Of a stretch of 64,000 bases of DNA, positions 2,209-62,835 are shown in pieces; position 1 is the stretch's first letter; every line of letters begins with the position of its first letter. This DNA comes from Mobula hypostoma (Eukaryota), in contig NC_086097.1 in assembly GCF_963921235.1 (NCBI RefSeq), forward strand, positions 46,378,001 through 46,442,000, read 5' to 3'. The notes under the pieces were generated by a model. The model saw only the letters and a list, made by a program, of their open reading frames with translations, searched no databases and was not told where the DNA came from. The translations under genes were made by a program, and so were the position numbers.

Positions 2209-2479
2209 ATAAAATGTACTTAAAGGCAGGTTAGAAGTTCAGGTTAAACCTTTCCTTTGAGAAATATTGTTTATTTTACTAAAGTAATGAAAAGCTTATT
2301 TACATAATCTGTCTAACTGATTCATGCATACATGACAAACAAAAGGTAGTTTTTATATTCCACATGCATTTTACAAATCAGTCCAAAATTAAAATTGTCA
2401 GATGTGGTATGTGCATGTAGAGAACTCCAGTGAACATTATAGAATATGTGACTATTAAATATTCATTCTATTTACCACC

Positions 2480-2790
2480 AAACGCATTATGGCTGCCATA
2501 CATGGCACCTATAGAAAGTGCTACCACAACATGTCAAACCTGGATCTGTAGCATCCACCACACCTTCAAACTTTACCACCTAAAGTCATACATTAACATC
2601 ACCTTTCTGACTTGGAAAGTACCATTCCTTTGAGGTACTTGGTCAAGGGTCAAAATTTGGAACTAACTAGCAGCACTGCGGGAATACCTTCACCACGCAG
2701 ATGACCCGAGCCTGAAAAAAGTCATCTAATCTCAAGGCTCCATAAATGCAGATACACCCACATTTCCAGCTACACCCACATCCTTTGAAC
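2480..2790 (+). mobile_element. Old CR1-like 3' fragment
   Basis: Degenerate match to the remembered CR1 end motif (aaaat..ggaact..cagcactg..ggg..acc..caccac..cccacatcc). Confidence 0.4.
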
Positions 2791-3727
2791 CGGTTTGAAA
2801 AGCTAACAATTTCCAAAACTATAGTAGAGATTGCTAGTTACACCAAATGATGTGAATCTCAAATAATGCTGAAGATACGATTCTGATTTGAAGGGTACAC
2901 ATTGTAAAGCTACTACTTTTTGTGGCAAAAAAATCGTTTTCAAGCAATTTAAACGTGAAGCTGAACTGCTTTTCACCTTTGGAACAAAGCAAATCTTGCA
3001 AAGAGACAGCCAAGAGATATCCAACAGTTTAGCACTTTGTGCCAGATGTGATATAATGCATCACCATTCAGTTGTTAATCTTATTACTGACGTCAATGAA
3101 AGAGCACAGGAAGTGAATCCTCTTAATTTGGAACATAACAGAATGCTGACCACCAAACAGAATATTAAAACTATTACTACTCTCACATAACTAACGTTAT
3201 ATCAGTCTCCAACGTTCAGTTGCAAACTAATCTCTAGAAGAATCATATTAAGAATTAAAATGTGGATAAACTTGTGGTAGAAGAAAAGCGCCACACCTTT
3301 TAAGCATCATCTCTCCACCTAATTATCTCAAATTGTGAAATACATGGATACTGGTAAATAAAAGTCAATAGTACTGTAATGACTGCAGTGGATCAAGCAG
3401 TTGTCATTCATGTTAGTAAGGAAACATATTTTATATAGGAATCAAACACAACTATTACCATTAGGTAAACTTTGTGTTGAATTCCATTTTTTTATCCGTC
3501 TGTATTCTTAAGAGAACCACATTTAAACGCTCGAAACACAATATGGATTACTAATTGCTAGTTTTAATAAATACCATTTTCCGACGCTTTACATCGCCAG
3601 GGAAGATCAAAGCGATTCATTAAAAAAAAGTGTCTCGAAAGAGAGTAAACACAGTTGGTTCGCGCATATGGACACAGGTCAAATAACGTTTATGATGTTA
3701 CAATGGATCACCTAAGGTTTTGCTTAC

Positions 3728-19300: not shown

Positions 19301-21099
19301 GGCAACTACTCAGGGGTTCTAATTATGATGGACTTCAGAGCGGTCTAGATGCTGTGAAAACCCTGAGGCACTTGCTGGGTAAAGGTTGTCAACACCACCA
19401 AATTCTCACCATTGTTCCACTGGGGTGAGTTCCAGGAAGTTCAAGATAATACTGCTTCCTAAATAATTTTGAAAGCTGCTGTCATTTGCCTTTAATAAGC
19501 AATTAACATTTAAAATTTTTGAATGCCACCCCCAAGAGGCTTTCCCAATTGCAGCTTGTATCAGGTTTCTGAGGCAACAGGTTCCGCAGATTTGAAGCTC
19601 CTGTCCTTACCCCAACACACCCACTCACAGGGATTAAAGTTCTCCATAATATGTTTACCACAGTTGCATTAAACCTAGTTTGTAAAACCCTGTATATGCT
19701 TATCTGGAATTTGAACCTTTGTCATCCAAATGATCTTTGACTCTTTTCCTTACAATCATCACTCTGTTACTGTACTACTAGCCACCTGTACAATCTGGTT
19801 TCGTAATAAGAAACCGAAAATATTTTATAAACATTAATGGTAAGGTAAATTCATATACTTTCAAACAAATTACATCATGTAGGCACTTTGTTTTGTTATC
19901 ACACATATGACTGAATATCAAATGAAAACTGCTTCCATTTCTTAATTTAAATCATTATTTATATTGAATGATTATAAATCTAAGCAGCAAATGTGTTCCT
20001 TAGAGAGTTTCTATTTTGATCAAATGAGTTTTAAATTCCAGCATTAGAGTAAATACTGTATGATCCTTCAGTCCTGGAGATATTTAAATTAATCTTTCAT
20101 TGTCTGCAAAGTGTTGTGTTGTATACTTTATAATCCAGTTAACACGGGACCTCTTCATGTTCCACCTGGTTCTGAAGTTCTTCATTTTAATTCATTGACC
20201 TGCCTGTTTTCTCATTGTGTGGGGGATGGTTTGCAGCTGTTTTCTTGTTCTGCAGATGGTGGTGGAGGCTCCACTTTCTGAAAGATGCAAGTGCAGTGAT
20301 GAAAATCCCTGGGATGGCGGTGCACAGCAGGCCTTCACTGTTATCACAGCCATCTGCCACACAATTAGGGGAGGGTGGACATTATGTTCTTACATGTTTA
20401 AAACCAAACAGATGAGATCCAGGAGCAGATTTTAGCAGCAGCAGCCTACAATGCAGACCTGTTTTTTAAAAAAAAAAGTAGCGCCAATTAACAACAAAAA
20501 TAAACGCTGGTGGGACTATAGGTGTCAAGCAGAATCTGTTGGGGGAAAAGAATTGTTTCTTTCAGGCTGAGACCCTGCATCAGGACATCTGATTCAAAAT
20601 GTACATAGGAATTGTGCAAGTTCTACAAGAATGGGTATTTTATTAAAGTTCTGATTACTGCGTATTTAAGTCCGAGACTCAATATGCTTGAATTTGGAAT
20701 TTACTCTTCCCTCTTTTGGCACAGTGAAATGCAGGCATTGGAAATATATGAAGTAAATCTTCAATTTGCTGTTCGGGGAAAAAAACGGTAAATAAAAGTT
20801 AGTAACGAGATTCTGTGCAAACGTCAATTGGCCAGGCAGGTACTAGTTGAAAAGAAATAAATACACACTTCAATGTCTAGCATTGACATCTGTCACCCAC
20901 TTAGGCGGCTCCTTAGCACTGATGTTAACAGTGTGTGTTTTTACAACAGATGACAATGCACTGTGTTCACTGATGACTTATAAGGATCCACAACAGCTGC
21001 TGTCAGGTATGTGCAACTGTGGGTCCAAATATGCCTGTGACATCTTGATGGATGTAGTCTAAAATAAGTATCATGATTGCCACTATATAAATTATGGCT

Positions 21100-22545: not shown

Positions 22546-22580
22546 AGTCCTGATGAAGGTCTCAGCCTGAAATATCGACT
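22546..22580 (+). ncRNA. Minimal type I hammerhead ribozyme in a short Penelope-like tail fragment (fragment runs to ~22660)
   Basis: AGTC-CTGATGA-aggtctcagcct-GAAA-TA-TC-GACT; downstream atagatgctgcctggcctgctgagttcctccagc matches the Penelope tails. Confidence 0.75.
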
Positions 22581-22859
22581 ATACTCTTTTCCATAGATGC
22601 TGCCTGGCCTGCTGAGTTCCTCCAGCATTTTGTGCGTGTTGCTTGGTTTTCCAACATCTATTCTCTTTGCTTTTTCACTCAATCATGCTGTATTGCAAAA
22701 AAATGCCTACTAACACAATCTTATCGATTTGTATAGAAACTGAGATTGACCAGAAATCCTTCAGTAATTGTATTTTTCCGTGTCTCCTTCGTTGAATCAC
22801 AGAATCCAGGGAGAGTTTGCATCACACTCGTGGATGTGGATTCACAACGGAATAAAAAT

Positions 22860-23437
22860 AAGCAAGTTCAGATAGAAATGGCAGAGATGAGCCCAGTTTC
22901 ATCCATTTTATTTTCACCCATTTGGTTGTCTGTGAAAATTTGGGCACCAGGCTCCCCATGAACATGCGGCGTGCTGGACAGGTTTACAGGTGCCGCCCAT
23001 CCATCCACACTCTAGGCCAAGAGCAATGGCACTTTTTGCTAGACAAGTGCCGCAGTCCCAGCCCAATCAGTGAGCGGTGTCCCAAGGGTACCATTGCATT
23101 TAGGTAGGATTGTGACTGAGAGTTGTTCAGACAAAATACTGTGAGTGGTAGTTTCGCACGATTGGCTCTTCAGCCGCAACATGGCACAGAATGTCCGAAC
23201 CTGCAGTTCCTCTCGTACTGAGCAGGGTTATTGTTGTAACAACACATCATCAGCAGGGAAAAACCTACCTGTCTCATAACGGTCTAGACCAAGATCACGT
23301 TCCCTATCAGTGGTCGGACAATCCATCATCTGGCGAATTCTGCTTCACAATGCTAAGAAGAGCCGATCTTGAAGGATCAAAAAGCAGTGTAGCTATGAGC
23401 TCTTGGCCACCACAAGCCAGTTATCACTGTGGTAACT
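22860..23437 (-). pseudogene. Decayed fragment of the 28S rRNA 3' end
   Basis: Reverse complement reads AGTTACCACAG.GATAACTGGCTTGTGG..TTTTTGATCCTTC..TCGGCTCTTC..GTGAAGCAGAATTC..; intact sarcin-ricin loop AGTACGAGAGGAAC at 23206-23219; weaker match to the terminal 28S domain at ~22860-22985. Confidence 0.9.
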
Positions 23438-24219
23438 AAAGGTAAAAAAGAACATGAACCTTTCTAGATATAGTAAATCACCATTCTTGTGCCCTAAATC
23501 CACCCATAGTATCACACTGTTTTAACTAAATTAATCATCTTTTCTCTATTCATTACAAAATTCATTTCATTAGTTTCATTTCTCAGCACGTATAAACAAC
23601 AGGTTAAGAAGCTGCAATCTTTCTGACTCTTTGCCAGTTCTGAGCTATAAATAGACTATAAAGAATTTTTTTTTAGTGATGCTTTGCCTGTAAGAACAGC
23701 AATATTAGAGCTGAGAGTTAAACCCAAGGCAACTGTTAAAGTCCTCCCTTACATGAATTCCTAACATACAAATTAGATGCTATGAGTTTTGACAGGCCTA
23801 TGATCAAAATAAATAAGAAATTAAAATATGCAACACGAAATAAAATTCTGAAATCTGTTAAGTTTTGCTTTATCATGTTTTTACTCAATTAGTAAAAAAA
23901 ATTAATGATACATCATTCATTTTGTACATTCTTCTTACTCTTGGGTAAGATGATGTTAAAAATAAATAAAAGGACAACTTACATTGCTGTAATTACAATT
24001 TGAAATCTTGTTACCTGCATGCAAGCAGTGAACGAATGAAGGACCAATGATTAAATTGATCCATTTTACCCAGGAGAAGAGGTATTGGAAATAACTTGAT
24101 ACGTTAGAGATAACTTATTTGTAAGATCCAACCAAACCTTGCAGCCTCTGGTGAATGATATCTGTTATCTGTCAAGTAGGGTGCCGTGCACAATCCTGAT
24201 TTGATGGTGACAGATGTGA

Positions 24220-29360: not shown

Positions 29361-29656
29361 ATAACGAATGAACCCAGGACCCATTCTCACAGCACTAGCT
29401 ATGTACTAATAGACAAAGAAAGAGAAAAAAAAACCTTACTAGAAATTTACTTAGAGCCTCTGCTTATTTTTGGCCAAGCCTTTTCTCACCTAAGCTCATT
29501 GAGCGAAAGTCTGGCCACTCTTAACACTGTTTACTTCAACCAACCCTGTGAATGTGGAAGGACAAGTTAAAAAGAAAGCAACTAATAAGACACGCAACAT
29601 ACATCAAAGTTGCTGGTGAACGCAGCAGGCCAAGCAGCATCTATAGGAAGAGGTGC

Positions 29657-29692
29657 AGTCGACGTTTCAGGCCGAGACCCTTCGTTAGGACT
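29657..29692 (-). ncRNA. Hammerhead ribozyme copy with core mutation (CUGA to CUAA)
   Basis: AGTC-CTAACGA-agggtctcggcct-GAAA-CG-TC-GACT. Confidence 0.75.
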
Positions 29693-31132
29693 AACTGAAG
29701 GAAGAGTGAGTAAGGGATTTGAAAGTGGGAGGGGGAGGGGGAGATCCAAAATGATAGGAGAAGACAGGAGGGGGAGGGATAGAGCCAAGAGCTGGACAGG
29801 TGATAGGCAAAAGGGGATACGAGAGGATCATGGGACAGGAGGCCCAGGGAGAAAGACAAGGGGGGAGGGGAACCCAGAGGATGGGCAAGGGGTATATTCA
29901 GAGGGACAGAGGGAGAAAAAGGCGAGTGAGAGAAAGAATGTGTGCATAAAAATGAGTAACAGATGGGGTACGAGGGGGAGGTGGGGCATTAGCGGAAGTT
30001 AGAGAAGTCAATGTTCATGCCATCAGGTTGGAGGCTACCCAGACGGAATATAAGGTGTTGTTCCTCCAACCTGAGTGTGGTTTCATCTTTACAGTAGAGG
30101 AGGCCGTGGATAGACATGTCAGAATGGGAATGGGATGTGGAATTAAAATGTGTGGCCACTGGGAGATCCTGCTTTCTCTGGCGGACAGAGCGTAGATGTT
30201 CAGCAAAGCGGTCTCCCAGTCTGCGTCGGGTCTCACCAATATATAAAAGGCCACATCGGGAGCACCGGACGCAGTATATCACCCCAGTCGACTCACAGGT
30301 GAAGTGATGCCTCACCTGGAAGGACTGTTTGGGGCCCTGAATGGTGGTAAGGGAGCAAGTGTAAGGGCATGTGTAGCACTTGTTCCGCTTACATGGATAA
30401 GTGCCAGGAGGGAGATCAGTGGGGAGGGATGGGGGGGACGAATGAACAAGGGAGTTGTGTAGGGAGCGATCCCTGCAGAATGCAGAGAGAGGGGGGGAGG
30501 GAAAGATGTGCTTAGTGGTGGGATCCCGTTGGAGGTGGCGGAAGTTACGGAGAATAATATGTTGGACCCGGAGGCTGGTGGGGTGGTAGGTGAGGACCAG
30601 GGGAACCCTATTCCTAGTGGGGTGGTGGGAGGATGGAGTGAGAGCAGATGTACATGAAATGGGGGAGATGCGTTTAAGAGCAGAGTTGATAGTGGAGGAA
30701 GGGAAGCCCCTTTCTTTAAAAAATGAAGACATCTCCCTCGTCCTACACTCAGGTTGGAGGAACAACACCATATATTCCGTCTGGGTAGCCTCCAACCTGA
30801 TGGCATGAACATTGACTTCTCTAACTTTCGCTAAGGCCCCACCTCCCCTTCGTACCCCATCTGTTACTCATTTTTATGCACACATTCTTTCCCTCACTCT
30901 CCTTTTTCTCCCTCTGTCCCTCTTAATATACCTCTTGCCCATCCTCTGGGTCACCCCCCCCGTCTTTCTTCCCGGACCTCCTATCCCATGATCCTCTCGT
31001 ATCCCCTTTTGCCTATCACCTGTCCAGCTCTCGGCTCTATCCCTCCCCCTCCTGTTTTCTCCTATCATTTTGCATCTCCCCCTCCCCCTCCCCCTCCAGC
31101 ATTCAAATCCCTTACTCACTCTTCCTTCAGTT

Positions 31133-31168
31133 AGTCCTGACGAAGGGTCTCGGCCTGAAACGTCGACT
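31133..31168 (+). ncRNA. Minimal type I hammerhead ribozyme, intact core
   Basis: AGTC-CTGACGA-AGGgtctcggCCT-GAAA-CG-TC|GACT; stem I AGTC/GACT, stem II AGG/CCT, palindromic ACGT stem III; predicted cut after 31164. Confidence 0.88.
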
Positions 31169-33361
31169 GCACCTCTTCCTATAGATGCTGCTTGGCCTGC
31201 TGCGTTCACCAGCAACTTTGATGTATGTTGCTTGAATTTCCAGCATCTGCAGAATTCCTGTTGTTTGCGAACTAATAAGACACCATGTATTCTGCTTTTT
31301 ATAAATTGATTGTTAAAGCCAAGAAGTGATTCTAGCTGAGTAAAACTTTAGTTTTCCCTAGCTGGAGTACTGTATATAATTTCAGGCAAAACTTGAGACC
31401 TGAGAACACGTAAGAGATTTACAAAGAAGTTCTAAGGTTGAGAGATCCTGGCTGCATGGATAGTTTGTAGGAATTGGGATTGTAGGGTGTGATTGGAACA
31501 GAGAATGTTGAAATGACATTTGATAGAGATGCTTAAATCATTAAAATTATAGATAGTGTAAAAAAAAGATAAACTATCTACAGTTGCAGGAGGATCAGCC
31601 ATGCATTTAAAGTGATTGGCAAACAATCCTCAGGTGACATGATAAAATATTTTACTTAACGTGGTTAGGATTTTGAAGTCACTGCCTAAACTAATAATGG
31701 AAAACGACTTTGTATAGTTTCCAAATGCATTAAGAACTGCTCTTCGAAAGGGCTGAATGGCCTCTATCCATCTGTTGAAGAGAAACTTTGGCATAGTAAT
31801 GAATTTGGAACATGTTGTGCTGCTGTTACACAGGAAGATTGGAGATATGACCTGTGATATAATTCCAAGAGGCCACATCCTTCCAGCCTCTTTCCCTAGT
31901 TCAAGGCTATTATATGAATTAAACTGGATATCCTGAATGACATCACAGCTTCTATTCAAATAACTGACTCGCACACGGTCAAAGATGCAACCCAAGACTG
32001 AATGAATGAATTTATGCATAACTAAGAAGAAAGAGGAGCAAAGAGGTAAGTAACACACAATAAATTAGACAGAGAATTCACTAGTTCTATTATTAAATTA
32101 TTTTTAAAGTCAACAGTACTTTATTCATCCAATTAAGTGGATGCTAGTAAAAATTTTGATTTTGCAACAACTCATTTTCAAACTGAATTCAAGCTACTTG
32201 ATTCTTATTTCAGAACGTGTTTCAGCTTATAGTTTGCAACAACTCAACTTGATATATAGAAGATTTAGAATCAGTGAATATTAATTATTGAATGAGGTAA
32301 TTCAAAGCAATCAGTTATTTCCACTCATTTTACCTAACTCCCCCTCCCCCATTTCTGTATCCAGTTTTATTTTGATGGTTGCTATTAATTCCACTGTCAT
32401 CATAAATTGTTGCTTTCTCTTCTGCTGCAGCTACTAATTGATCTGATATTGAGTTTAAAAAGCTGATATTGCCAATCTGCCTAATGCAGTTCTGGTGGAA
32501 GTTCTGCTCCAGAAGACCATGTAATATATTTTGTGGAAGTTTACCTTTCAGAAATTGTTAATGAGCATTTCTCAACATGCTTAAATCTGTTAAATGGGAT
32601 TAAATGACGTCTGAAGTTCTGAAAATTGTGGGATTTTAGAGCCTAAATTATTTATTTGCTCAACTTTAATGCTATTGGTTAAGTGCATCTCCTGCACACC
32701 TCAGCTGTAATTAACATAATTGAGCAGATGGTTACCCATTCAGCAGCTGAGCAGATTGCCTACTCTAACATGATAATGACAATCATATCAATCATGGACC
32801 AATCACTGGAAACAAAACTATATTTCTTGCTTTATTTTGAATATAATGTGATCTTAATTATTCCTCCTTTTAAAAGAGTCTCTTTTCAGATTATAGTGCT
32901 ACATTTCAAAATAAGGAGAAAAATATCTTCATTTAGTGCTAAAGGCCAGTTCAGATACATTTTGTTTGAGATGTGCTTAACCAAATGTCATTTAAGATAT
33001 AAGACTTCAGTGGTATGAATCCAATGGTCAAACTGAAATACTATTTGTCAGCAGACAGATAATATGTACATTGCTATTTGTTTCCCAAAGATCACCAGTT
33101 TGAGCCTTGGTGTATCATGTCTATTGTATGCAAAGGTTTAAAAACAATTTCATGGGAATTAAATGATGCTGTTAATGTGAGGTAATTATTTTAAAATGAC
33201 TTTTAATCCCTTATCCCAGCTCTAGCATTTAATGAGATCTCATCTGATATTTTACTTAGGGTCATTTATATGCACAAACTATCCCTTGGTTCCCTGATAT
33301 CCAGAAATCTGATTATCTTGGTCTTTAATATATTCAGTGACTGAGCTTCACAGCCTTCTTG

Positions 33362-34632
33362 AAAAGAGAATGCCAAAGACTGACAATGCAATTGTTTCTG
33401 TCTTGTCCCACCTGGAAAATGGGGTCTCATATGTCAGGCTGCTGTTTACAGACTTCACTTCAGCATTTAACACTATCATGCCCCAGAAACTGGTGGGAAA
33501 ATTGTCCCTACTGGGCCTCAACACCTCCCACTGCAACTAGATCCTGAACTTCTTAACAGAAGGGCCATAGTCAGTCTGTGTGGGCAGCAACGTCTCCAGT
33601 CCCATCATTACACCGAGTGCTCAGCCTGCTACTGTTCACACGGCTGAGGCATGACTGGGTCGCAGGATTCAACTCAAATCGCGCCATCAAGTTTGCAGAT
33701 GACACAACAGTGATTGGCCTCATCATCAACGATGATTCAGAGTACAGAGAGGAAATGGAGCAGCTGGTGGACTGGTGTGAGAAGAACAATCTAAGTCTGA
33801 ATGTGGCGAAGACCAAGGAAATCATTGTGGACTTCAGGAAAGTGCAGATGAACCATCCCCTTCTACGAATACATGGCTCCTCCATAGCGAGAGTTAAGTG
33901 CACCAAGTTCCTGGGAGTTCACATTATGGATGACCTCATCTTCCTGAATAAGAAGGCATGGCAGCATCTCCACTTCCTAAGGAGATTGAGGAAAATGAGG
34001 CTTGCACCCCCATATTAACTACAATTTATAGGAGTGCCATTGACAGCATCCTGACAAGTTACATCTCCATCTGGTAAGACAGCAGCCAAGCATCGGACCA
34101 GAAGTCCCTGCAAAGGACTGTGAGAATGGTTGAGAGGTTCATAGGAGTCTCCCTACTATCCATCGGGGACATTTATCAGGAGTGCTGTGTATGGAGGGGA
34201 CTTAGTATTATCAGGGATCCCACCCATCCATCCAACATCCTCTTTGACTTTCTACCATCAGGCAAGAGACTCCGATGCATAAAAACAAGAACGGTCAGGA
34301 TGGGAAACAGCTTCTTCCCTCGGGCCGCTAGGATTCTGAACTCCCTGCCGCATCGTGTGTTGCTTGAATTTCTAGCATCTGCAGATTTCCTCGTGTCTGC
34401 ATTCAAAGCGCCATTGGTTAATCTGTTCTGTACCTTACAACATATAAATTATGCACTTTAGTTAGTTTATTTATGCTTAGTTCATCTGTAGATTTTATCC
34501 TTATTTTTATGTTATTGTGCGTTATATATGTTATGTATACTACAGCACTTTTCACCCTGGTTTGGAGAAATGTTGTCTTGCTTGATGGTATACGTGTATA
34601 TAGTTAAATGACAATAAACTTACCTTGACTTA
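33362..34632 (+). mobile_element. Decayed Rex1/Babar-like LINE
   Basis: [65 protein letters not shown]; tail gacaataaacttaccttgact. Confidence 0.88.
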
Positions 34633-44110: not shown

Positions 44111-44809
44111 CAGCAAGCTTTACGTCCCAGCAAAATAAACTGCTGGAGGAACTCAGCAGGTCAAGCAACATCTGTGGGGGAATAGGAACTGCCAACGTGT
44201 TGGGTCAAGCCCTACATCAGGACAATACATCAATTAATTAACTGGAGCCCTTGATTGCTGCACTTCCATCTACAATCGACATTTCTCAGACAGATACAGA
44301 ATGAATAAATATCAGTGCAACCTTATTAAACTGCATAAACGTTGACTCAAGCAGCAATAAACTTACATGTCATAAGTTATTCCTTCTAAGCAGTTGAGAC
44401 AGCCCTAGGGTTTTCTAAGTACTGATAATAGTCCTACAGCGGCGGTAACGTAGGTGTGATAAATATATTTTAATTTTTTTTGTGAATTTTCATACAAAAT
44501 TATCCAATGTTATTAGATCTTTGGTGCTTCCACAAAGGATCACAAAATCGAGGCCAGGAACCAAAATGCTATCAGATTGAAAGGATAAAATGATTGTTAA
44601 GTTAATAAGGGAAATAATGTTAATTTTTATAAAACAATTTTAACAGGGATTGGATTTAACAGGGCTTGGGAATATGGCTGAAGACAGACGATGGTGCCAC
44701 CTACTGGTTCATTATGGTCCCATTCGGGACCATCAGTACTTTAACTGTTGGAGTTTCTGAAGTGCCATCATGATTCGATTGTTAGTGATGTACCATATGG
44801 TATGTAGTA

Positions 44810-49004: not shown

Positions 49005-49175
49005 AACACGCAAATAATGCTGGAGGAACTCAACAGATCCGGGCAGCATCTGTAGAAAGGAATAAAAAGTGAACCTCACTGGCTGAGACCCTTCATTAGG
49101 ACTGGAGAGGAAGGGGGAAGAAGCTAGAATAAGAAGGTGGAAGGAGGGGAGGAAACACAAGCTGGCAAGTGATGG
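49005..49175 (-). mobile_element. Old Penelope-like tail with degenerate hammerhead
   Basis: tgctggaggaactca..gcagcatctg..ggctgagacccttcattaggact; GAAA box lost. Confidence 0.65.
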
Positions 49176-51920: not shown

Positions 51921-53120
51921 AAGACCATAACACAAAGGAGCAGAAGTCGGCCATTCAGCCCATTGAGTCTGCTCTGCCATTTTATCATGAGCTGATCCAT
52001 TCTCCCATTTAGTCCCACTCCCCTGCCTTCTCACCATAACCTTTGATGCCCTGGCTACTTAGATACCTATCAATCTCTGCCTTAAATACATCCAATGACT
52101 TAGCCTCCACTGCCACCCGTGGCAACAAATTCCATAGATTCATCACCCTCTTCCAAAAAAAATTTCTTCGCATCTCTGTTCTGAATGGGTGCCCTTCAAT
52201 CCTTAAGTCATGCCCTCTCGTACTAGACTCCCCCATCATGGGAAACAACTTTGTCACATCCACTCTGTCCATTCCTTTCAACATTCAAAATGTTTCTATG
52301 AGGTCTCCCCTCATTCTTCTAAACTCCAAGGAACACAGTCCAAGAGCGGACAAACGTTCCTCATATGTTAACCCTCTCATTCCCAGAATCATTCTAGTGA
52401 ATCTTCTCTGTACCCTCTCCAACGTCAGCACATCCTTTCTTAAATAAGGAGACCAAAACTGCCCACAGTACTCCAAGTGAGGTCTCACCAGCGCCTTATA
52501 GAGCCTCAACATCACATCCCTGCTCCTATACTCTATTCCTCTAGAAATGAATGCCAACATTGCATTCGCCTTCTTCACCACCGACTCAACCTGCAGGTTA
52601 ACCTTAAGGGTATCCTGTACAAGGACTCCCAAGTCCCATTGCATCTCAGAACTTTGAATTCTCTCCCCATTTAAATAATAGTCTGCCTGTTTATTTCTTC
52701 TGTCAAAGTGCATAACCATACACTTTCAAACATTGTATTTCATTTGACACTTCTTTGCCCATTCTTACAATCTATCCAAGTCTCTCTGCAGACTCTCTGT
52801 TTCCTCAGCACTAGCGGCCCCTCCACCTATCTTCGTATCGTCAGCAAACTTAGCCACAAAGCCATCTATTCCATAATCCAAATTGTTGATGTACAATGTA
52901 AAAAGAAGCGGCCCCAACACAGACCCCTGTGGAACACCACTGGTAACTGGCAGCCAACCAGAATAGGATCCCTTTATTCTCACTCTCTGTTTCCTGCTAA
53001 TCAGCCAACGCTCTATCCACGTAAACAACAGGAATTCTGCGGATGCTGGAAATTCAAGCAACACACACAAAAGTTGCTGGTGAATGCAGCAGGCCAGGCA
53101 ACATCTATAGGAAGAGGTGC

Positions 53121-53156
53121 AGTCGACGTTTCAGACCGAGACCCTTCGTCAGGACT
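53121..53156 (-). ncRNA. Minimal type I hammerhead ribozyme, intact core
   Basis: AGTC-CTGACGA-AGGgtctcggTCT-GAAA-CG-TC-GACT (G-U pair in stem II). Confidence 0.85.
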
Positions 53157-54462
53157 AACTGAAGGAAGAGTGAGTAAGGGATTTGAAAGTTGGAGGGGGA
53201 GGGGGAGATCCAAAATGATAGGAGAAGACAGGAGGGGGAGGGATGGAGCCAAGAGCTGGACAGGTGATAGGCAAAAGGGATATGAGAGGATCATGGGACA
53301 GGAGGTCCGGGAAGAAAGACAAGGAGGTGGGGGGGGGGACGCAGAGGATGGGCAAGAGGTATATTCAGAGGGACAGAGGGAGAAAAAGGAGAGTGAGAGA
53401 AAGAATGTGTGTATAAAAATAAGTAACAGACGGGGTACGAGGGGGAGGTGGGGCATTAGCGGAAGTTAGAGAAGTCGATGTTCATGCCATCAGGTTGGAG
53501 GCTACCCAGACGGAATATAAGGTGTTGTTCCTCCAACCTGAGTGTGGCTTCATCTTTATAGTAGAGGAGGCCGTGGATAGACATGTCAGAATGGGAATGG
53601 GATGTGGAATTAAAATGTGTGGCCACTGGGAGATCCTGCTTTCTCTGGCGGACAGAGCATAGATGTTCAGCAAAGCGGTCTCCCAGTCTGCGTCGGGTCT
53701 CGCCAATATATAAAAGGCCACATCGGGAGCACCGGACGCAGTATATCACCCCAGTCGACTCACAGGTGAAGTGTTGCCTCACCTGGAAGGACTGTTTGGG
53801 GCCCTGAATGGTGGTAAGGGAGGAAGTGTAAGGGCATGTATAGCACTTGTTCCGCTTACACGGATAAGTGTCAGGAGGGAGATCAGTGGGGAGGGATGGG
53901 GAGGACGAATGGACAAGGGAGTTGCGTGGGATCGATCCCTGCGGAATGCAGAGAGAGGGGGGGAGGGAAAGATGTGCTTAGTGGTGGGATCCCGTTGGAG
54001 GTGGCGGAAGTTACGGAGAATAATATGTTGGACCCAGAGGCTGGTGGGGTGGTAGGTGAGGACCAGGGGAACCCTATTCCTAGTGGGGTGGCGGGAGGAT
54101 GGAGTGAGAGCAGATGTACGTGAAATGAGGGAGATGCGTTTAAGAGCAGAGTTGATAGTGGAGGAAGGGAAGCCCCTTTCTTTAAAAAAGGAAGACATCT
54201 CCCTCGTTCTAGAATGAAAAGCCTCATCCTGAGAGCAGATGTGGCGGAGACGGAGGAATTGTGAGAAGGGGATGGCGTTTTTGCAAGAGACAGGGTGAGA
54301 AGAGGAATAGTCCAGATAGCTGTGAGAGTCAGTAGGCTTATAGTAGACATCAGTGGATAAGCTGTCTCCAGAGACAGAGACAGAAAGATCTAGAAAGGGG
54401 AGGGAGGTGTCGGAAATGGACCAGGTAAACTTGAGGGCAGGGTGAAAGTTGGAGGCAAAAAA

Positions 54463-56381
54463 AACTGCCGATGGGACATCAATCATCTCGACTTCACTGC
54501 ACCTTGTCCCCATTCCAGCCTCACTCCTTCGGAACACTCTGCTCTCCACTCCCTCCGCTCTAATCCTAACCTTATTATTAAACCCGCCGATAAGGGGGGT
54601 GCTGTTGTAGTCTGGCGTACTGACCTCTACCTTGCCGAGGCACAGCGACAACTCGCGGATACCTCCTCTTATTTACCCCTCGATCGTGACCCCACTAAGG
54701 AGCACCAGGCCATTGTCTCTCACACCATCACCGACTTTATCCGCTCAGGGGATCTCCCATCCACTGCTACCAACCTTATAGTTCCCACACCTCGCACTTC
54801 CCGTTTCTACCTCCTACCCAAGATCCACAAACCTGCCTGTCCTGGCCGACCTATTGTCTCCGCTTGCTCCTGCCCCACCGAACTCGTTTCTGCATACCTC
54901 GACACGGTTTTATCCCCCCTTGTTCAATCCCTTCCGACCTATGTTCGTGACACATCTTACGCTCTTAAACTTTTCGATGATTTTAAGTTCCCTGGCCCCC
55001 ACTGCTTTATCTTCACCATGGATGTCCAGTCCCTATATACTTCCATCCCCCATCAGGAAGGTCTCAAAGCTCTACGCTTCTTTTTGGATTCCAGACCTAA
55101 TCAGTTCCCCTCTACCACCACTCTGCTCCGTCTAGCGGAATTAGACCTTACTCTTAATAATTTCTCCTTTGGCTCCTCCCACTTCCTCCAAACTAAAGGT
55201 GTAGCTATGGGCACCCGTATGGGTCCTAGCTATGCCTGCCTTTTTGTTGGCATTGTGGAACAATCTATGTTCCGTGCCTATTCTGGTATCTGTCCCCCAC
55301 TTTTCCTTCGCTACATTGACGACTGCATTGGCGCTGCTTCCTGCACGCCTGCAGAACTCGTTGACTTTATTAACTTTGCCTCCAACTTCCACCCTGCTCT
55401 CAAGTTTACCTGGTCCATTTCCGACACCTCCCTCCCCTTTCTAGATCTTTCTGTCTCTGTCTCTGGAGACAGCTTATCCACTGATGTCTACTATAAGCCT
55501 ACTGACTCTCACAGCTATCTAGACTATTCCTCTTCTCACCCTGTCTCTTGCAAAAACGCCATCCCCTTCTCGCAATTCCTCCATCTCCACCGCATCTGCT
55601 CTCAGGATGAGGCTTTTCATTCTAGAACGAGGGCGATGTCTTCCTTTTTTAAAGAAAGGGGCTTCCCTTCCTCCACTATCAACTCTGCTTTTAAACGCAT
55701 CTCCCCCATTTCACATACATCTGCTCTCACTCCATCCTCCCGCCACCCCACTAGGAATAGGGTTCCCCTGGTCCTCACCTACCACCCCACCAGCCTCCGG
55801 GTCCAACATATTATTCTCCGTAACTTCCGCCACCCCCAATGGGATCCCACCACTAAGCACATCTTTCCCTCCCCCCTCTCTCTGCATTCCACAGGGATCG
55901 CTCCCTACGCATCTCCCTTGTCCATTCATTCGTCCCCCCATCCCTCCCCACTGATCTCCCTCCTGACATTTATCCGTGTAAGCGGAACAAGTGCTATACA
56001 TGCCCTTACACTTCCTCCCTTACCACCATTCAGGGCCCCAAACAGTCCTTCCAGGTGAGGCAACACTTCACCTGTGAGTCGATTGGGGTGATATACTGCG
56101 TCCGGTGCTCCTGATGTGGCCTTTTATATATTGGCGAGACCCGACGCAGACTGGGAGACCGCTTTGCTGAACATCTGTGCTCTGTCCGCCAGAGAAAGCA
56201 GGATCTCCCAGTGGCCACACATTTTAATTCCACATCCCATTCCCAGTCTGACATGTCTATCCATGGCCCCCTCCACTGTAAAGACGAAGTCACACTCAGG
56301 TTGGAGGAACAACACCTTATATTCCGTCTGGGTAGCCTCCAACCTGATGGCATGAACATCGACTTCTCTAACTTCCGCTAA
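54463..56381 (+). pseudogene. Penelope/Neptune-type reverse transcriptase-GIY-YIG ORF, 5'-truncated, frameshifted near 55870, stop near 56113
   Basis: IKPADKGGAVVV, FYLLPKIHK, PGRPIVS, MDVQSLYTSIPH, GVAMGTRMGPSYACLF, LRYIDD, FLDL, VYYKPT; ends ..DFSNFR*. Confidence 0.92.
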
Positions 56382-56677
56382 TGCCCCACCCCCCCGTACC
56401 CCATCTGTTACTTATTTTTATACACACATTCTTTCTCTCACTCTCCTTTTTCTCCCTCTGTCCCTCTGAATATACCCCTTGCCCATCCTCTGCGTCCCCC
56501 CCCCCACCTCCTTGTCTTTCTTCCCGGACCTCCTGTCCCATGATCCTCTCATATCCCTTTTGCCTATCACCTGTCCAGCTCTTGGCTCCATCCCTCCCCC
56601 TCCTGTCTTCTCCTATCATTTTGGATCTCCCCCTCCCCCTCCAACTTTCAAATCCCTTACTCACTCTTCCTTCAGTT

Positions 56678-56713
56678 AGTCCTGACGAAGGGTCTCGGCC
56701 TGAAACGTTGACT
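56678..56713 (+). ncRNA. Minimal type I hammerhead ribozyme, GUU cleavage triplet
   Basis: AGTC-CTGACGA-AGGgtctcggCCT-GAAA-CG-TT-GACT. Confidence 0.82.
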
Positions 56714-59145
56714 GCACCTCTTCCTAGAGATGCTGCCTGGCCTGTTGCGTTCACCAGCAACTTTTGCGTGTGTTGCTCTATCCACATATGTAACTTTCCC
56801 GTAATTCCATGGGCTCTTATCTTGTTAAGTAGCCTCATGTGTGGCACCTTGGCAAAGGCCTTCTGAAAATCCAAATATACAACATCCACTGCATCTCCCT
56901 TGTCTAGCCTACTTGTAATTTCCTCAAAAAATTGTAATAGGTTTGTCAGGCAGGATTTTCCTTTAAGGAATCCATGCTGAGTTCTGCCTATCTTGTCATA
57001 TGCCTCCAGGTACTCTGTAACCTCATCCTTGACAATTGACTCCAACAACTTCCCAACCACCGATGTCAAGCTAACAGGTCTATAATTTCCTTTTTGCCTC
57101 CTTGCCCCCTTCTTAAATAGCGGAGTGACATTTGAAATCTTCCAGTCCTCTGGAACCATGCCAGAATCTATCGACTTTTGAAAGATCATCACTAATGCCT
57201 CCACAATCTCCACAGCTACTTCCTTCAGAACACGAGGGTGCATTCCATCTGGTCCAGGAGATTTATCTACCTTTAGACTATTCAGCTTCCTGAGTACTTT
57301 CTCTGTTGTAATTGTGACTGCACACACTTCTCTTCCCTGCCACCCTTGAGTGTCCGGTATACTGCTGATGTCTTTCTCAGTGAAGACTGATGCAAAATAC
57401 TCACAGTTCCTCTGCCATCTCCTTATCTCCCATTACAATTACTCCAGCATCATTTTCTATTGGTCCTATATCTACTCTCACCTGTCTTTTACTCTTTATA
57501 TACCTGAAAAAGCTTTTAGTATCCTCTTCGATATTATTTGCTAGCTTCCTTTCATAGTTAATCTTTTCCCTCATAATGACCTTCTTAGTTTCCTTTTGTA
57601 AGCTTTTAGAAACTTCCCAATCCTCTGTCTTCCTACTAATTTTTGCTTCCTTGTATGCCCTCTCCTTTGCTTTAACTTTGGCTTTGACTTCTCTTGTCAG
57701 CCATGGTGGCATCCTTTTTCCCTTCGAAAATTTCTTCTTTTTTGGAATATATCTGTCTTGCACCTTCCTCACTTCTTGTATAAACTCCAGCCACTGCTGC
57801 TCTGTCATCCTTCCCGCCAGTATCCCTTTCCAGTTAACTTTGGCCAGTTCCTCTCTCATGCCACTATAATTTCCTTTACTCCACTGAAATACCGACACAT
57901 CAGATTTTGGCTTCTCTTTTTCAAATTTCACAGTGAACTCAGTCATGCTATGATCACTGCTTCCTAAGGGTTCCTTCACCTCAATCTCTCTAATCACCTC
58001 CGGTTCATTACACAATACCCAATCTAGTACAGCTGATCCCCTAGTGGGCTCAACAACAAGCTGTTCTAAAAAGCCATCTCGCAGACATTCTACAAATTCT
58101 CTCTCTTGAGATCCACTGCCGACCTGATTTTCCCAATCAACTCGCATGTTAAAATCCCCCACAATTATCATAACACTGCCCTTCTGACAAGCCTTTTCTA
58201 TTTCCTCTTGTAATTTGTAGTCCACATCACTGCAGTTGTTTGGAGGCCTATAAATAACTGCCATCAGGGTCCTTTTACCCCTGCGATTTCTTAGCTCAAC
58301 CCATAAAGATTCTGCACCTTCCTATCCTATATCGCCTCTTTCTAATGATCTAATATCATTTCTTACCAATAAATCCACGCCTCCTCCTCCCCCCGCCTAC
58401 CTTCCTATCCTTCCGATACACCGTGTATCCTTGGACGTTCAGCTCCCAGAGACATGCATCCTTCAGCCACATCTCAGTGATGGCCACAATATCATACCTG
58501 CCAATCTGTAGCTGTACGACAAGATCATCCACCTTATTCCTTATGCTGCGTGCATTTAAGTATAACACCTTAAGACCAGTATTTGGTACTTTTCGCTCTG
58601 ATTTCACTGCAACTCATCCCAATGGCTACAAATTTGCCCCACCACCTGCCTGTCTTTCCTGACATCTTTACTGCTCACTATCTTAGATTTATTTCTGTTT
58701 TCCCCTTCTTCCGCTCTATCATTCCGGTTCCCATCCCCTTGCCAAATTAGTTTAAACCCTCCCTAACAGCTCTATTAAACCTTCCCGCCAGGATATTGGT
58801 CCCCTTCGGGTTCAGCTGTAACCTGTCCCTTTTGAACAGGTCAAATATTTGTTAATGCGGGAACAAGCACTTTAAAAATGAGATTATTGTAGGATTGGTA
58901 TTAATGGATGTGCAGACTGGGTGAGCCTAAGGCCCCATTCCTGTGATGTCTCTCTCTAATTCTCTGGCTAAGAAATTTTACAGGAGATTTTCAGTAACAC
59001 CCACTGTTTCTGGAGAGGAATAAGAAGATTCAGTAGTGTGGCTTTTCAAACAGTGTTGTCAAAATATATCACTTTAGAGCTTTATCCATCAATTTTAGGG
59101 AGATAGGCAAAGAAGTTTTCACACTGAAAAAATGACCCAGGTGTA

Positions 59146-59219
59146 AATGTCCACTGTACCTCTTCCTAGAGATGCTGCCTGGCCTGCTGCGTTCACCAGC
59201 AACTTCGATGTGTGTTGTT
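59146..59219 (+). mobile_element. 74-bp Penelope tail micro-insertion
   Basis: Matches ~31159-31232; flanked by AGGTGTA at 59139-59145 and 59220-59226. Confidence 0.75.
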
Positions 59220-59526: not shown

Positions 59527-62500
59527 ATAGTTAGAATAGTACAGCACATTAGAGGCCCTTCGGCCCACAATGTTGTGCCGACCCTCAAACACTGCCTCCC
59601 ATATAACCCCCCCACCTTAAATTCCGCCATATACCTGTCTAGTAGTCTCTTAAACTTCACTAGTGTATCTGCCTCCACCACTGACTCAGACAGTGCATTC
59701 CACGCACCAACCACTCTCTGAGTAAAAAAACCCTCCTCTGATATCCCCCTTGAACTTCCCACCCCTTATCTTAAAGCCATGTCCTCTTGTATTGAGCATT
59801 GGTGCCCTGGGGATGAGGCGCTGGCTATCCACTCTATCTATACCTCTTAATATCTTGTATACCTCTATCATGTCTCCTTTCATCCTCCTTTTCTCTAAAG
59901 AGTAAAGCCCTAGCTCCCTTAATCTCTGATCATAATCCATACTCTTTAAACCAGGCAGCATCCTGATAAATCTCCTCTGTACCCTTTCCAATGCTTCCAT
60001 ATCCTTCCTATAGTGAGGCGACCAGAACTGGACACAGTACTCCAAGTGTGGCCTAACCAGAGTTTTATAGAGCTGCATCATTACCTCGCAACTCTTAAAC
60101 GCTATCCCTCGACTTATGAAAGCTAACACCCTATAAGCTTTCTTAACTACCCTATCCACCTGTGAGGCAACTTTCAGGGACCTGTGGACATGTACCCCCA
60201 AATCCCTCTGCTCCTCCACACTGCCAAGTATCCTTCCATTTACTTTGTACTCTGCCTTGGAGTTTGTCCTTCCAAAGTGTACCACTTCACACTTCTCCGG
60301 GTTGAACTCCATCTGCCACTTCTCAGCCCACTTTTGCAACCTATCAATGTCTCTCTGCAATCTTTGATAATCCTCTACACTATCTACAACACCACCAACC
60401 TTTGTGTTGTCTGCAAACTTGCCAACCCACCTTTCTACCCCCATATCCAGGTCGTTAATAAAAATCACGAAAACTAGAGGTCCTAGAACCGATCCTTGTG
60501 GGACACCACTAGTCACAACCCTCCAATCCGAATGTACTCCCTCCACCACGTCCCTCTGCCTTCTGCAGGTAAGACAATTCTCAATCCACCTGGCCAAACT
60601 TCCCTGGATCCCATGCCTTCTGACTTTCTGAATAAGCCTACCATGTGGAACTTTGTCAAATGCCTTACTAAAATCTATATAGATCACATCCACTGCACTC
60701 CCCTCATCTATATGCCTGGTCACCTCCTCAAAAAACTCTATCAGGCTTGTTAGACACAATCCGCCCTTCACAAAGCCATGCTGACTGTCCCTGATCAGAC
60801 CATGATTCTCTATATGCCTATAGATCCTATCTCTAAGAATCTTTTCCAACAGCTTTCCCACCACAGACGTAAGGCTCACTGGTCTATAATTACCCGGATT
60901 ATCCTTGCTACCTTTTTTGAACAAGGGGACAACATTCGCCTCCCTCCAATCCTCCGGTACCATTCCCATAGACAACGAGGACATAAAGGTCCTAGCCAGA
61001 GGCTCAGCAATCTCTTTCCTTGCCTCATGGAGCAGCCTGGAGAATATTCCATCGGGCCCCGAGGACTTATCAGTTCTAATGTATTTTAATAACTCCAACA
61101 CCTCCTCTCCCTTAATATCAACATGCTCCAGAACATCAACCTCACTCATATTGTCCTCACTGTCATCAAGTACCCTCTCATTGGTGAATGCCAAAGAGAA
61201 GTATTCATTGAGGACCTCGCACACTTCCACAGCCTCCAGGCACATCTTCCCACCTTTATCTCTAATCGGTCCTACCTTCACTCCTGTCATCCTTTTTTTC
61301 TTCACATAATTGAAGAATGCCTTGGGGCTTTCCTTTACCCTACTCGCCAAGGCCTTCTCATGCCCCCTTCTTGCTCTTCTCAGACCCTTCTTAAGCTCCT
61401 TTCTCGCTACCCTATATTCCTCAATAGACCCATCTGATCCTTGCTTCCTAAACCTCATGTATGCTGCCTTCTTCCACCTGACTAGATTTTCCACCTCACT
61501 TGTCACCCATCGTTCCTTCACCCGACCATTCTTTATTTTCCTCACCAGGACAAATTTATCCCTAACATCCTGCAAGAGATCTCTAAACATCGACCACATG
61601 TCCATAGTACATTTCCCTACAAAAACATCATCCCAGTTCACACCTGCAAGCTCTAGCCTTATAGCCTCATAATTTGCCCTTCCCCAATTAAACATTTTCC
61701 TGTCCTCTCTGATTCTATCCTTTTCCATGATAATGCTGAAGGCCAGGGAGTGGTGGTCACTGTCCCCCAGATGCTCACCCACTGAGAGATCTGTGACCTG
61801 ACCCGGTTCTTTACCTAATACTAGATCTAGCATGGCATTTCCCCTAGTCGGCCTGTCAACATACTGTGACCAGAATCCATCCTGGTCACACTTAACAAAC
61901 TCTGCCCTGTCCAAACCCTTGGAACTAATCAGGTGCCAATCAATATCAGGGAAGTTAAAGTCACCCATGATAACAACCCTGTTATTTTTGCACCTTTCCA
62001 AAATCTGCCTCCCAATCTGCTCCTCGGTATCTCTGCTGCTACCAGGGGGCCTATAGTATACTCCCAATAGAGTAACTGCTCCCTTACTGTTATTGACTTC
62101 CACCCATACTGACTCAAAAGAGGATTCTGCTACATTACCCACCCTTTCTGTAGCTGTAATAGTATCCCTGACCAGTAATGCCACCCCTCCTCTCCTTTTT
62201 CCCCTCTCTCTATCCCTTTTAAAGCACTGAAATCCAGGAATATTGAGAATCCATTCCTGCCCTGGTGCCAGCCAAGTCTCTGTAATGGCCACTACATCAT
62301 AATTCCATGTATGTATCCAAGCTCTCAGTTCATCACCTTTGTTCCTCATGCTTCTTGCATTGAAGTACATGCACTTTAGCCCTTCTACCTTCCTACCTTT
62401 ACACACTTTATTCTGCTTCTCTTTCCTCAAAGCCTCTCTATATGTTAGATCTGGCTTTACTCCATGCACTTCTTTCACTGCTCTATCGCTCCAGGTCCAA

Positions 62501-62835
62501 TCCCCCTCGCAAATTAGTTTAAAATCCTCCTGAACCATGCTAGCAAACCTACCTGCAAGGATATTGCTCCCCCCTGAGTTCAGGTGCAACCCATCCAATC
62601 TGTACAGGTCCCACTTCCCCTGAAGAGATCCCAATGATCCAAAAATCTAAAACCCTGCCCCCTGCACCAACTCCTCAGCCATGCATTCAACTGCCATCTC
62701 CTCCAATTCTTAGCATCACAATCACGTAGGACTGGCAGCAATCCTAAGAACGCCACCCTTGAGGTCCTGTTCTTCAGCCTTCTGCCTAGTTCCCGAAACT
62801 CACACTTCAGGACCTCATCCCTCTTCCTGCCTATG
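59527..62835 (-). mobile_element. Young 5'-truncated CR1 LINE (SGNH-esterase ORF1 remnant and ORF2)
   Basis: ORF1 WQLNAWLRSWCRGQGFRFLDHWDLF..DGLHLN; ORF2 with endonuclease and RT. Confidence 0.95.
59686..62634 (-). pseudogene. 982-codon CR1 frame: esterase C-terminus, AP endonuclease and RT; catalytic FADD changed to FADN; frameshift near C-terminus
   Basis: NARS, AITETW, MGDFN, SDH, NYRPVSLTS, DFSKAFDKV, GVPQGSVLGP, FADNTK; native end FFTQRVVGAWNAL lies in another frame (59508-59762). Confidence 0.9.

Follow-up and report, generated by a model that had tools for sequence, protein, structure and literature searches.

The window analysed here, a stretch of 64,000 nucleotides from Mobula hypostoma, carries two inverted-repeat insertions (29594-31269 and 53021-56776), each consisting of two 5'-truncated arms with their 3' ends outward. 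One arm of each insertion stops at a short end and the other at a long end, and the locus raises the question of how one integration event leaves two different 3' ends. An earlier note had proposed that an RNA fold behind a ribozyme defines both endpoints and directs reverse transcriptase (RT) to internal initiation on one target strand and terminal initiation on the other. Both ends and both stems lie where that note placed them in the two insertions, and the strands AGCAAC/GTTGCT and AGATGCTG/CAGCATCT are complementary as written. For Penelope-like elements, whose inverted arms and one-sided tail call for an explanation, the sole in vitro study found two internal starts that were not linked within one event. 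The thousands of natural products present in this genome make a model with one RNA and two primers testable with two marked RNAs.

Judged by domain and motif layout, the element is a Neptune- or Nematis-type Penelope-like retroelement, and 31165-31269 is identified as the 3' end of a Neptune-type unit, in which a minimal hammerhead motif is followed by the known 30-40-nt tail. A Cx2-5CxxC motif between RT and endonuclease is given as a feature of the Neptune (or Nematis) clade in the available part of PMC8557442, and a Cx4Cx2C motif stands before the GIY-YIG motif here. The GIY-YIG endonuclease at 53459-53899 scores above the cut-off (PF01541, E 1.9e-05). RT and a GIY-YIG domain at the C terminus belong to a single frame, though the window contains only shortened copies or copies with a disrupted frame; the N terminus has two homologues that are whole proteins of 924-946 amino acids, in which both domains are present by eye. 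The frame at 54442-56058 stops ahead of the endonuclease at a run of C, and the same frame end in 11 other copies examined may be an effect of selection, as copies were ranked by likeness to the window copy. Tandem or partial-tandem and inverted 5'-truncated copies of an approximately 3.5-kb unit provide the pseudo-LTR (pLTR) arrangement, with a minimal hammerhead in the pLTR and a 30-40-bp tail at one end. In insertion 2, the target site duplication (TSD) shares 3 nt with the template at the short end and 2 nt at the long one, and the ends of this insertion are therefore uncertain by 2-3 nt.

Table 1. Positions of the features discussed, in window coordinates.
Feature	Position	Strand	Remark
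Insertion 1, TSD, left copy	29580..29593	+	14 nt
Insertion 1, left arm	29594..30745	-	short end at 29594
C-terminal frame remnant (Cx4Cx2C linker and GIY-YIG endonuclease)	29989..30795	-	PF01541, E 5.5e-04
Insertion 1, right arm	30745..31269	+	long end
Putative minimal type I hammerhead motif	31133..31168	+	read from the sequence against the description in PMC4209133
Post-ribozyme module	31165..31269	+	ends and stems located in the sequence
Outer stem, 5' strand	31183..31190	+	no covariation
Inner hairpin AGCAAC/GTTGCT	31211..31232	+	predicted in the window family; not complete in older families
Short-end zone	31218..31238	+	GU-rich, mode 31229
Insertion 1, tail (between the two zones)	31232..31269	+	assigned from sequence; cf. 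PMC11167929
Outer stem, 3' strand	31241..31248	+	within the interval where no copy ends; 31198-31202 is an alternative partner
Long-end zone	31262..31269	+	GU-rich, mode 31266; up to 31277-equivalent elsewhere
Insertion 1, TSD, right copy	31270..31283	+	14 nt
Insertion 2, TSD, left copy	53010..53020	+	11 nt
Insertion 2, left arm	53021..54459	-	long end at 53021
RT-domain reading frame, 5'-truncated	54442..56058	+	PF00078, E 8e-06, below the Pfam cut-off
Insertion 2, right arm	54463..56776	+	short end near 56776
Insertion 2, TSD, right copy	56775..56785	+	11 nt; first 3 nt also match the template

The hammerhead motif comprises stem I (31133-31136/31165-31168) and a core of CTGACGA (31137-31143) and GAAAC (31157-31161); its predicted cut falls after 31164, and the module starts at the first base beyond. 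The left arm of insertion 1 carries a G-to-A change in this core. The minimal hammerheads in the available part of PMC4209133 share the type I core, the short stem I and the minimal palindromic stem III, whereas stem II is shorter in the Mobula motif; in the same source they form opposite-strand pairs 100-700 bp apart and are present in fish Neptune elements. The motif has no Rfam match at the gathering score, and the 5' ends of 49 short inverted pairs show no sharp pile-up at the predicted cut. A 5'-end peak was seen at 31133-31136, but in a set chosen by spacing. Searches for a solved structure matching by sequence and for the hammerhead pattern in metagenome and viral contigs returned no match, while a protein search gave a single weak 25-residue match (L157) and none in viral contigs.

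An 18-nt anchor within the module has 96,316 exact copies in the 3.48 billion bases of the genome, an abundance that puts the pattern described below far beyond chance. On contig C1, every one of the first 100 matches to the anchor was read without selection, with the last matching base scored as the end, so that chance or real target overlap is included. Short ends accounted for 55 copies, all within the short-end zone of Table 1, and long ends for 44 (31262-31277); none ended at 31239-31261, and one copy read through. The two peaks anticipated in the earlier note were found with an empty gap between them, and the two end classes about 37 nt apart stand. The ends are not fixed points, as that note had described them, but zones. 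Most short ends (40/55) lay in 31227-31233 and most long ends (34/44) in 31265-31268; nine of the 55 short ends were in the hairpin loop, including L153, which a 1-nt deletion had placed there wrongly. Throughout the genome, 42,739, 42,724 and 41,225 of the 96,316 anchors reach 31236, 31248 and 31259, respectively, a plateau between two drops that agrees with the 100-copy histogram. Contigs of four runs, probably DNA, had loose ends at the long zone in 4/4 and at the short zone in 2/4.

Within a single insertion, 29-50 nt separate the short from the long end (median 37.5, n=38), and their positions are uncorrelated (rho 0.17, p 0.31), a spread and correlation that rule out a fixed ruler between them. 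On the coding strand each zone is rich in G and U, and an AC-rich stem-loop start was not found at either. In one case (L019/L058; G000:C1 from 591234), an untailed arm ends near 31189-equivalent, which places it some 40 nt upstream of where short ends normally fall; arms ending there lack the anchor and are hence absent from the histogram.

Genome-wide, 402 tandem junctions read through the long end, and in four loci (L035, L037, L040 and L113) the sequence runs on beyond it into the following unit, entering that unit at its 5' end. The conserved start codon of that unit lies 34 nt beyond the long end, and many homologues begin there. Frangieh et al. 2024 studied the Poseidon element of Anolis carolinensis (PAc) in vitro, where reverse transcription has two internal start sites bounding the tail and requires RNA to +172 (PMC11167929). 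The distinction between internal and terminal initiation drawn in the earlier note is not supported, in view of the 402 junctions crossing the long end and the internal position of both Anolis starts. Both Mobula ends appear instead to be internal to a template spanning the junction, and a terminal start is not called for by these data. Some copies (L035:289-367) have an A at 31225-equivalent that places a short-zone ATG in frame with the downstream start codon; homologues start at the downstream codon, not at this ATG. A separate locus (G000:C2:157816730-157817702) contains the read-through junction four times with a 310-nt period and could be a retrozyme-like tandem of the element end (cf. 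the available part of 10.64898/2026.07.22.740005).

The same evidence bears on the explanation that an internal start is fixed by the inner hairpin, at the 3' base of that hairpin, while the long end is the 3' terminus of the RNA, an explanation which must accommodate both the read-through junctions and an Anolis template that extends well beyond the start. In the window family, the hairpin itself is well predicted, with pair probabilities of 0.67-0.98 in four read-through copies and a complete stem in 7/9 copies, and 40 of the 55 short ends fall on or beside its 3' strand. The Anolis template (PMC11167929) also has, by eye, an inner hairpin within a 7-bp outer stem upstream of the +111-118 start. 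However, short ends spread over 21 nt, only 11/55 being at the 3' base (31231-31232), and none of 20 older-family copies, hand-chosen for variety from the first 100 of 30,022 matches, has a complete hairpin (mean probability, 0.05); inner pairs 5 and 6 are lost, with no compensation. A family in which the hairpin is weakly or not predicted still keeps the rule of one tail per pair, described below, with 2 double-tailed pairs among 359 tailed arms. The inner hairpin as the positioning element is consequently not supported, and we consider hairpin-set internal initiation combined with terminal initiation very unlikely.

The fold of the whole module is not more stable than that of shuffled sequences (z, -0.33 for 31165-31269, -1.46 for 31176-31255 and -1.15 with downstream sequence). 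The predicted probability of the outer stem in the window family depends on context and lies anywhere between 0.00 and 0.91, since 31198-31202 offers 31241-31245 an alternative partner. In an alignment of 25 rows, the outer stem is 97% paired and 0/8 pairs have changed on both sides, although 20 of the rows were picked by a pattern demanding both strands and the power for covariation is low. RNAalifold returned the outer stem as the sole consensus helix, from an alignment that is one column off between families at the inner stem. The covariation analysis suggested by the earlier note thus showed no covariation in either stem, with the low power and partial stem selection already described. Both strands of the outer stem are kept across families without compensatory change, and the absence of such change, together with the selection of 20/25 rows by the stem, makes motif and fold inseparable in these alignments. 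Also conserved across families are the spacing of the outer strands (55-59 nt) and two GU-rich motifs, one preceding the 3' strand and one following it by approximately 10-20 nt. An alternative hairpin (31198-31202/31210-31214) is preferred in some older copies; it was rejected as a general feature, its probability being close to 0 in the window family and its pairing in 29/29 copies being a circular count, as the strands were located by motif.

The two zones are used in a mutually exclusive manner. Short inverted pairs, defined by an anchor gap of 100-130 nt, number 4,789. The tail probe is present on 4,262 of their arms, and only 24 pairs are double-tailed, versus approximately 948 expected for independent choice; exactly one tail was detected in 4,214 pairs and none in 551, the latter being, by estimate, close to the loss expected from decay of an exact 6-nt probe. 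The assignment of one end class to each arm, and so to each target strand, which the earlier note drew from two insertions, holds genome-wide in this set of short pairs. Of 58 pairings read base by base, 55 had one tail, two had none and one had two, one pairing (in L109) not being a true pair and several lacking a TSD. Single copies with a clean TSD bear either a short or a long end, and some partner arms consist of the tail only (about 13-60 nt), a sequence missing from the other arm. Tail-only or nearly tail-only arms were noted at G000:C1 loci from 601414, 443168 and 840633 and at 34355-34400 of the window. In the direct partial tandems of L034, L035 and L109, the inner junction passes after the long (tailed) end straight into a 5'-truncated copy.

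The tailed arm was shorter than its partner in 26 pairs, longer in 19 and equal in 4 (n=49), indicating no bias toward a leader or a follower. A tail always on the shorter arm, as in both window insertions, is ruled out by this split, and in L041 the tail is on the long arm. Arm lengths also bear on a fold-back route, in which cDNA with its start in the long zone bends onto itself and serves as template as far as the short zone, where synthesis stops and is joined rather than started. Such a route would give the same layout and identical arms and predicts target-template overlaps at the short end, and self-priming has been proposed for such palindromes (PMC3846280, in the part available). It requires the tailed arm to reach further 5', yet this arm is the shorter one in 26/49 pairs and in both window insertions, where fold-back is excluded. 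Furthermore, tail-only arms are not copyable from a tail-less partner, and short-end single copies with a TSD exist. Fold-back may account for part of the 19 pairs with a longer tailed arm; as the general explanation it is extremely unlikely.

Target sites were compared in 38 of 57 loci that have one tail and an exact duplication of at least 9 nt. TSDs are 10-17 nt long, and 12-15 nt in 32/38. Counted outward from the TSD centre on either strand, position 13 is a T in 49/76 half-sites (p 1.6e-9) and position 14 in 43. In 14 further targets, from single or tiny-arm insertions hand-picked from 32 for clear duplication, a T is at 13 nt in 16/28 half-sites (p 1.3e-3). The sites of these 38 inverted and 14 other insertions (L063-L111, merged loci and both window insertions) are two-fold symmetric, with T 13-14 nt out on each strand and A/T at the centre. 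A symmetric site and a set stagger are what a dimeric nuclease would leave. Target and template overlap by 1.47 nt at the short end (0.74 simulated) and 1.21 nt at the long end (0.73 simulated), with no difference shown between the ends (p 0.27); short-end overlaps of at least 3 nt, the feature that fold-back predicts, number 11/38 versus 2.4 expected.

The two arms of a pair derive from one lineage. At a diagnostic base they agree in 4,784 of 4,886 pairs (1,813 + 2,971) and are discordant in 102, versus about 2,306 expected from independent draws. In 49 pairs, 231/259 polymorphic sites are concordant, compared with 57% after permutation, and rare variants are common to both arms in 3/58 cases versus 0.33 expected, a value reached in 12/2,000 permutations. 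The arm discordance of 2.1% is estimated to be near the level that later mutation alone would give. Concordance can equally arise from two RNAs of one source locus, from staggered subfamily activity or from conversion between arms. The arms of L066 and of insertion 2 are discordant at diagnostic sites, and in insertion 1 no private variant is common to both arms.

These data are compatible with two readings of the template. We favour, with modest confidence, priming by both nicked strands on one RNA at two internal GU-rich zones of the Penelope priming region. The discordant insertion 2 and L066, the lack of a private shared variant in insertion 1, the absence of a leader or follower bias in arm length, the 1/58 double-tailed pairing and the 2/58 tail-less pairings count against it. 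The alternative is that two RNAs of the same source locus are used, one for each subunit of an asymmetric dimer whose subunits are bound to the upstream and the downstream zone, respectively. Two RNAs would account for exclusivity, unbiased arm length and the discordant L066 and insertion 2, and no strand displacement would be required, but both would have to come from one lineage in approximately 98% of events, a separate source of asymmetry would be needed, and the estimated contribution of later mutation leaves little discordance to explain. Two RNAs per event are, in our judgement, unlikely.

With one RNA, the template would run through a tandem junction, from the 3' end of one unit through the hammerhead and module to the 5' end of the next; this order is present in DNA and is presumed for the RNA. 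A protein, probably a dimer, would nick both target strands about 13-14 nt apart at the two-fold symmetric site, and each 3' end would then prime reverse transcription, with one start in the GU-rich zone upstream and its counterpart some 37 nt further downstream. The simplest cause of the mutual exclusion of the zones within an event would be that both primers occupy the same RNA molecule. Pairing of 1-4 bases between primer and template, as the overlap statistics show, assists and blurs both starts. The zones are probably set by the protein reading repeated UGUnGUU-like motifs that flank the outer stem, and not by the inner hairpin. The two cDNAs would stop independently, because arm lengths are unbiased (26/19/4), and would be joined head to head into an inverted pair with one tail; the observed head-to-head joints have overlaps of 0-5 nt or short fillers. 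Copying the same RNA twice is assumed to involve strand displacement, and a primer left unextended on the RNA would give a single copy with either end. The broader proposal, that integration of Penelope-like elements is an obligate paired priming in which a two-fold symmetric enzyme nicks the strands 13-14 nt apart and places both primers on a single RNA, at two staggered zones, and that pairs, one-sided tails, stubs and single copies are outcomes of one reaction, could as readily prove wrong as right. If true, obligate paired priming would be a third integration geometry beside those of LTR and ordinary target-primed elements.

In LINE-1 twin priming, both target strands prime on one RNA and an inversion results; homology lets the second primer anneal at any position, and there is no overlap between the two cDNAs. 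The Mobula insertions resemble this process in the use of two strands, the proposed single RNA and the inversion, and differ from it in the restriction of the second start to a zone at a distance of 37 nt and in the nearly complete overlap of the arms. One locus departs from this pattern: L055:2283-5535 (G000:C1 from 519145) has a 29-nt tail-only piece followed by a jump to unit position 2274, and its other arm spans 2244-3476, so that the arms barely overlap, as in LINE-1 twin priming.

Comparison with PAc is more direct. The PAc protein cuts and extends both strands in vitro and is predicted to be a dimer (PMC11167929). In PAc a hammerhead is followed by two internal starts bounding a 30-40-nt tail, the template spans the tandem junction, and both target strands are cut and extended; the genomic ends and read-through junctions of Mobula would fit the same arrangement. 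Unlike PAc, the Mobula element has the Neptune-type linker motif, presumed starts that are GU-rich rather than AC-rich and a module placed outside the frame, upstream of its conserved start codon. In the printed Anolis template, read by eye and as a lead only, the 7-bp stem ends 11 nt before the +111-118 start and encloses an AC-rich loop (PMC11167929). Both strands used the same start sites in the PAc bulk assay (PMC11167929), a result compatible with coupled as well as with uncoupled starts. The main text and methods of that study do not describe start coupling, same-lineage arms, a 13-14-nt stagger or a symmetric target base (PMC11167929).

Inverted-pLTR insertions with an optional tail were described by Arkhipova et al. 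2013 (PMC3846280) and Craig et al. 2021 (PMC8557442), who, in the available parts of these papers, suggest endonuclease resolution or self-priming, whereas in Mobula the tail is nearly obligate on exactly one arm. TSDs of 12-15 nt in Mobula also differ from the 8-10 nt of the rotifer examples there (PMC3846280, PMC8557442). Resolution of a transposition intermediate by the endonuclease would make the tail at the DNA level rather than by two RNA starts; it would yield one-sidedness and identical arms and is given as the likely cause in the available part of PMC8557442. Later in vitro work places RT starts on the ends of the tail (PMC11167929), and template overlap at both ends, together with zones 16-21 nt wide, fits priming better than cutting, which renders a tail cut from DNA highly improbable. 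The tail, its one-sidedness and the two internal starts are already published as far as these sources go (PMC3846280, PMC8557442, PMC11167929), and genome-wide counts are added here. A literature search, with subscription papers and Repbase outside its scope, found no count of tail exclusivity, template concordance or target symmetry for Penelope-like elements.

Older or short related ends bearing a hammerhead occur elsewhere in the window, at 22546-22659, 44141-44223, 59145-59217, 20543-20586 and 49059-49102, and the older families have at least 30,022 tailed copies genome-wide. In addition, the minus strand of the window contains a decayed fragment of eukaryotic large-subunit rRNA (22845-23500) and an open LINE frame of 982 codons with an AP-type endonuclease and RT (59686-62634).
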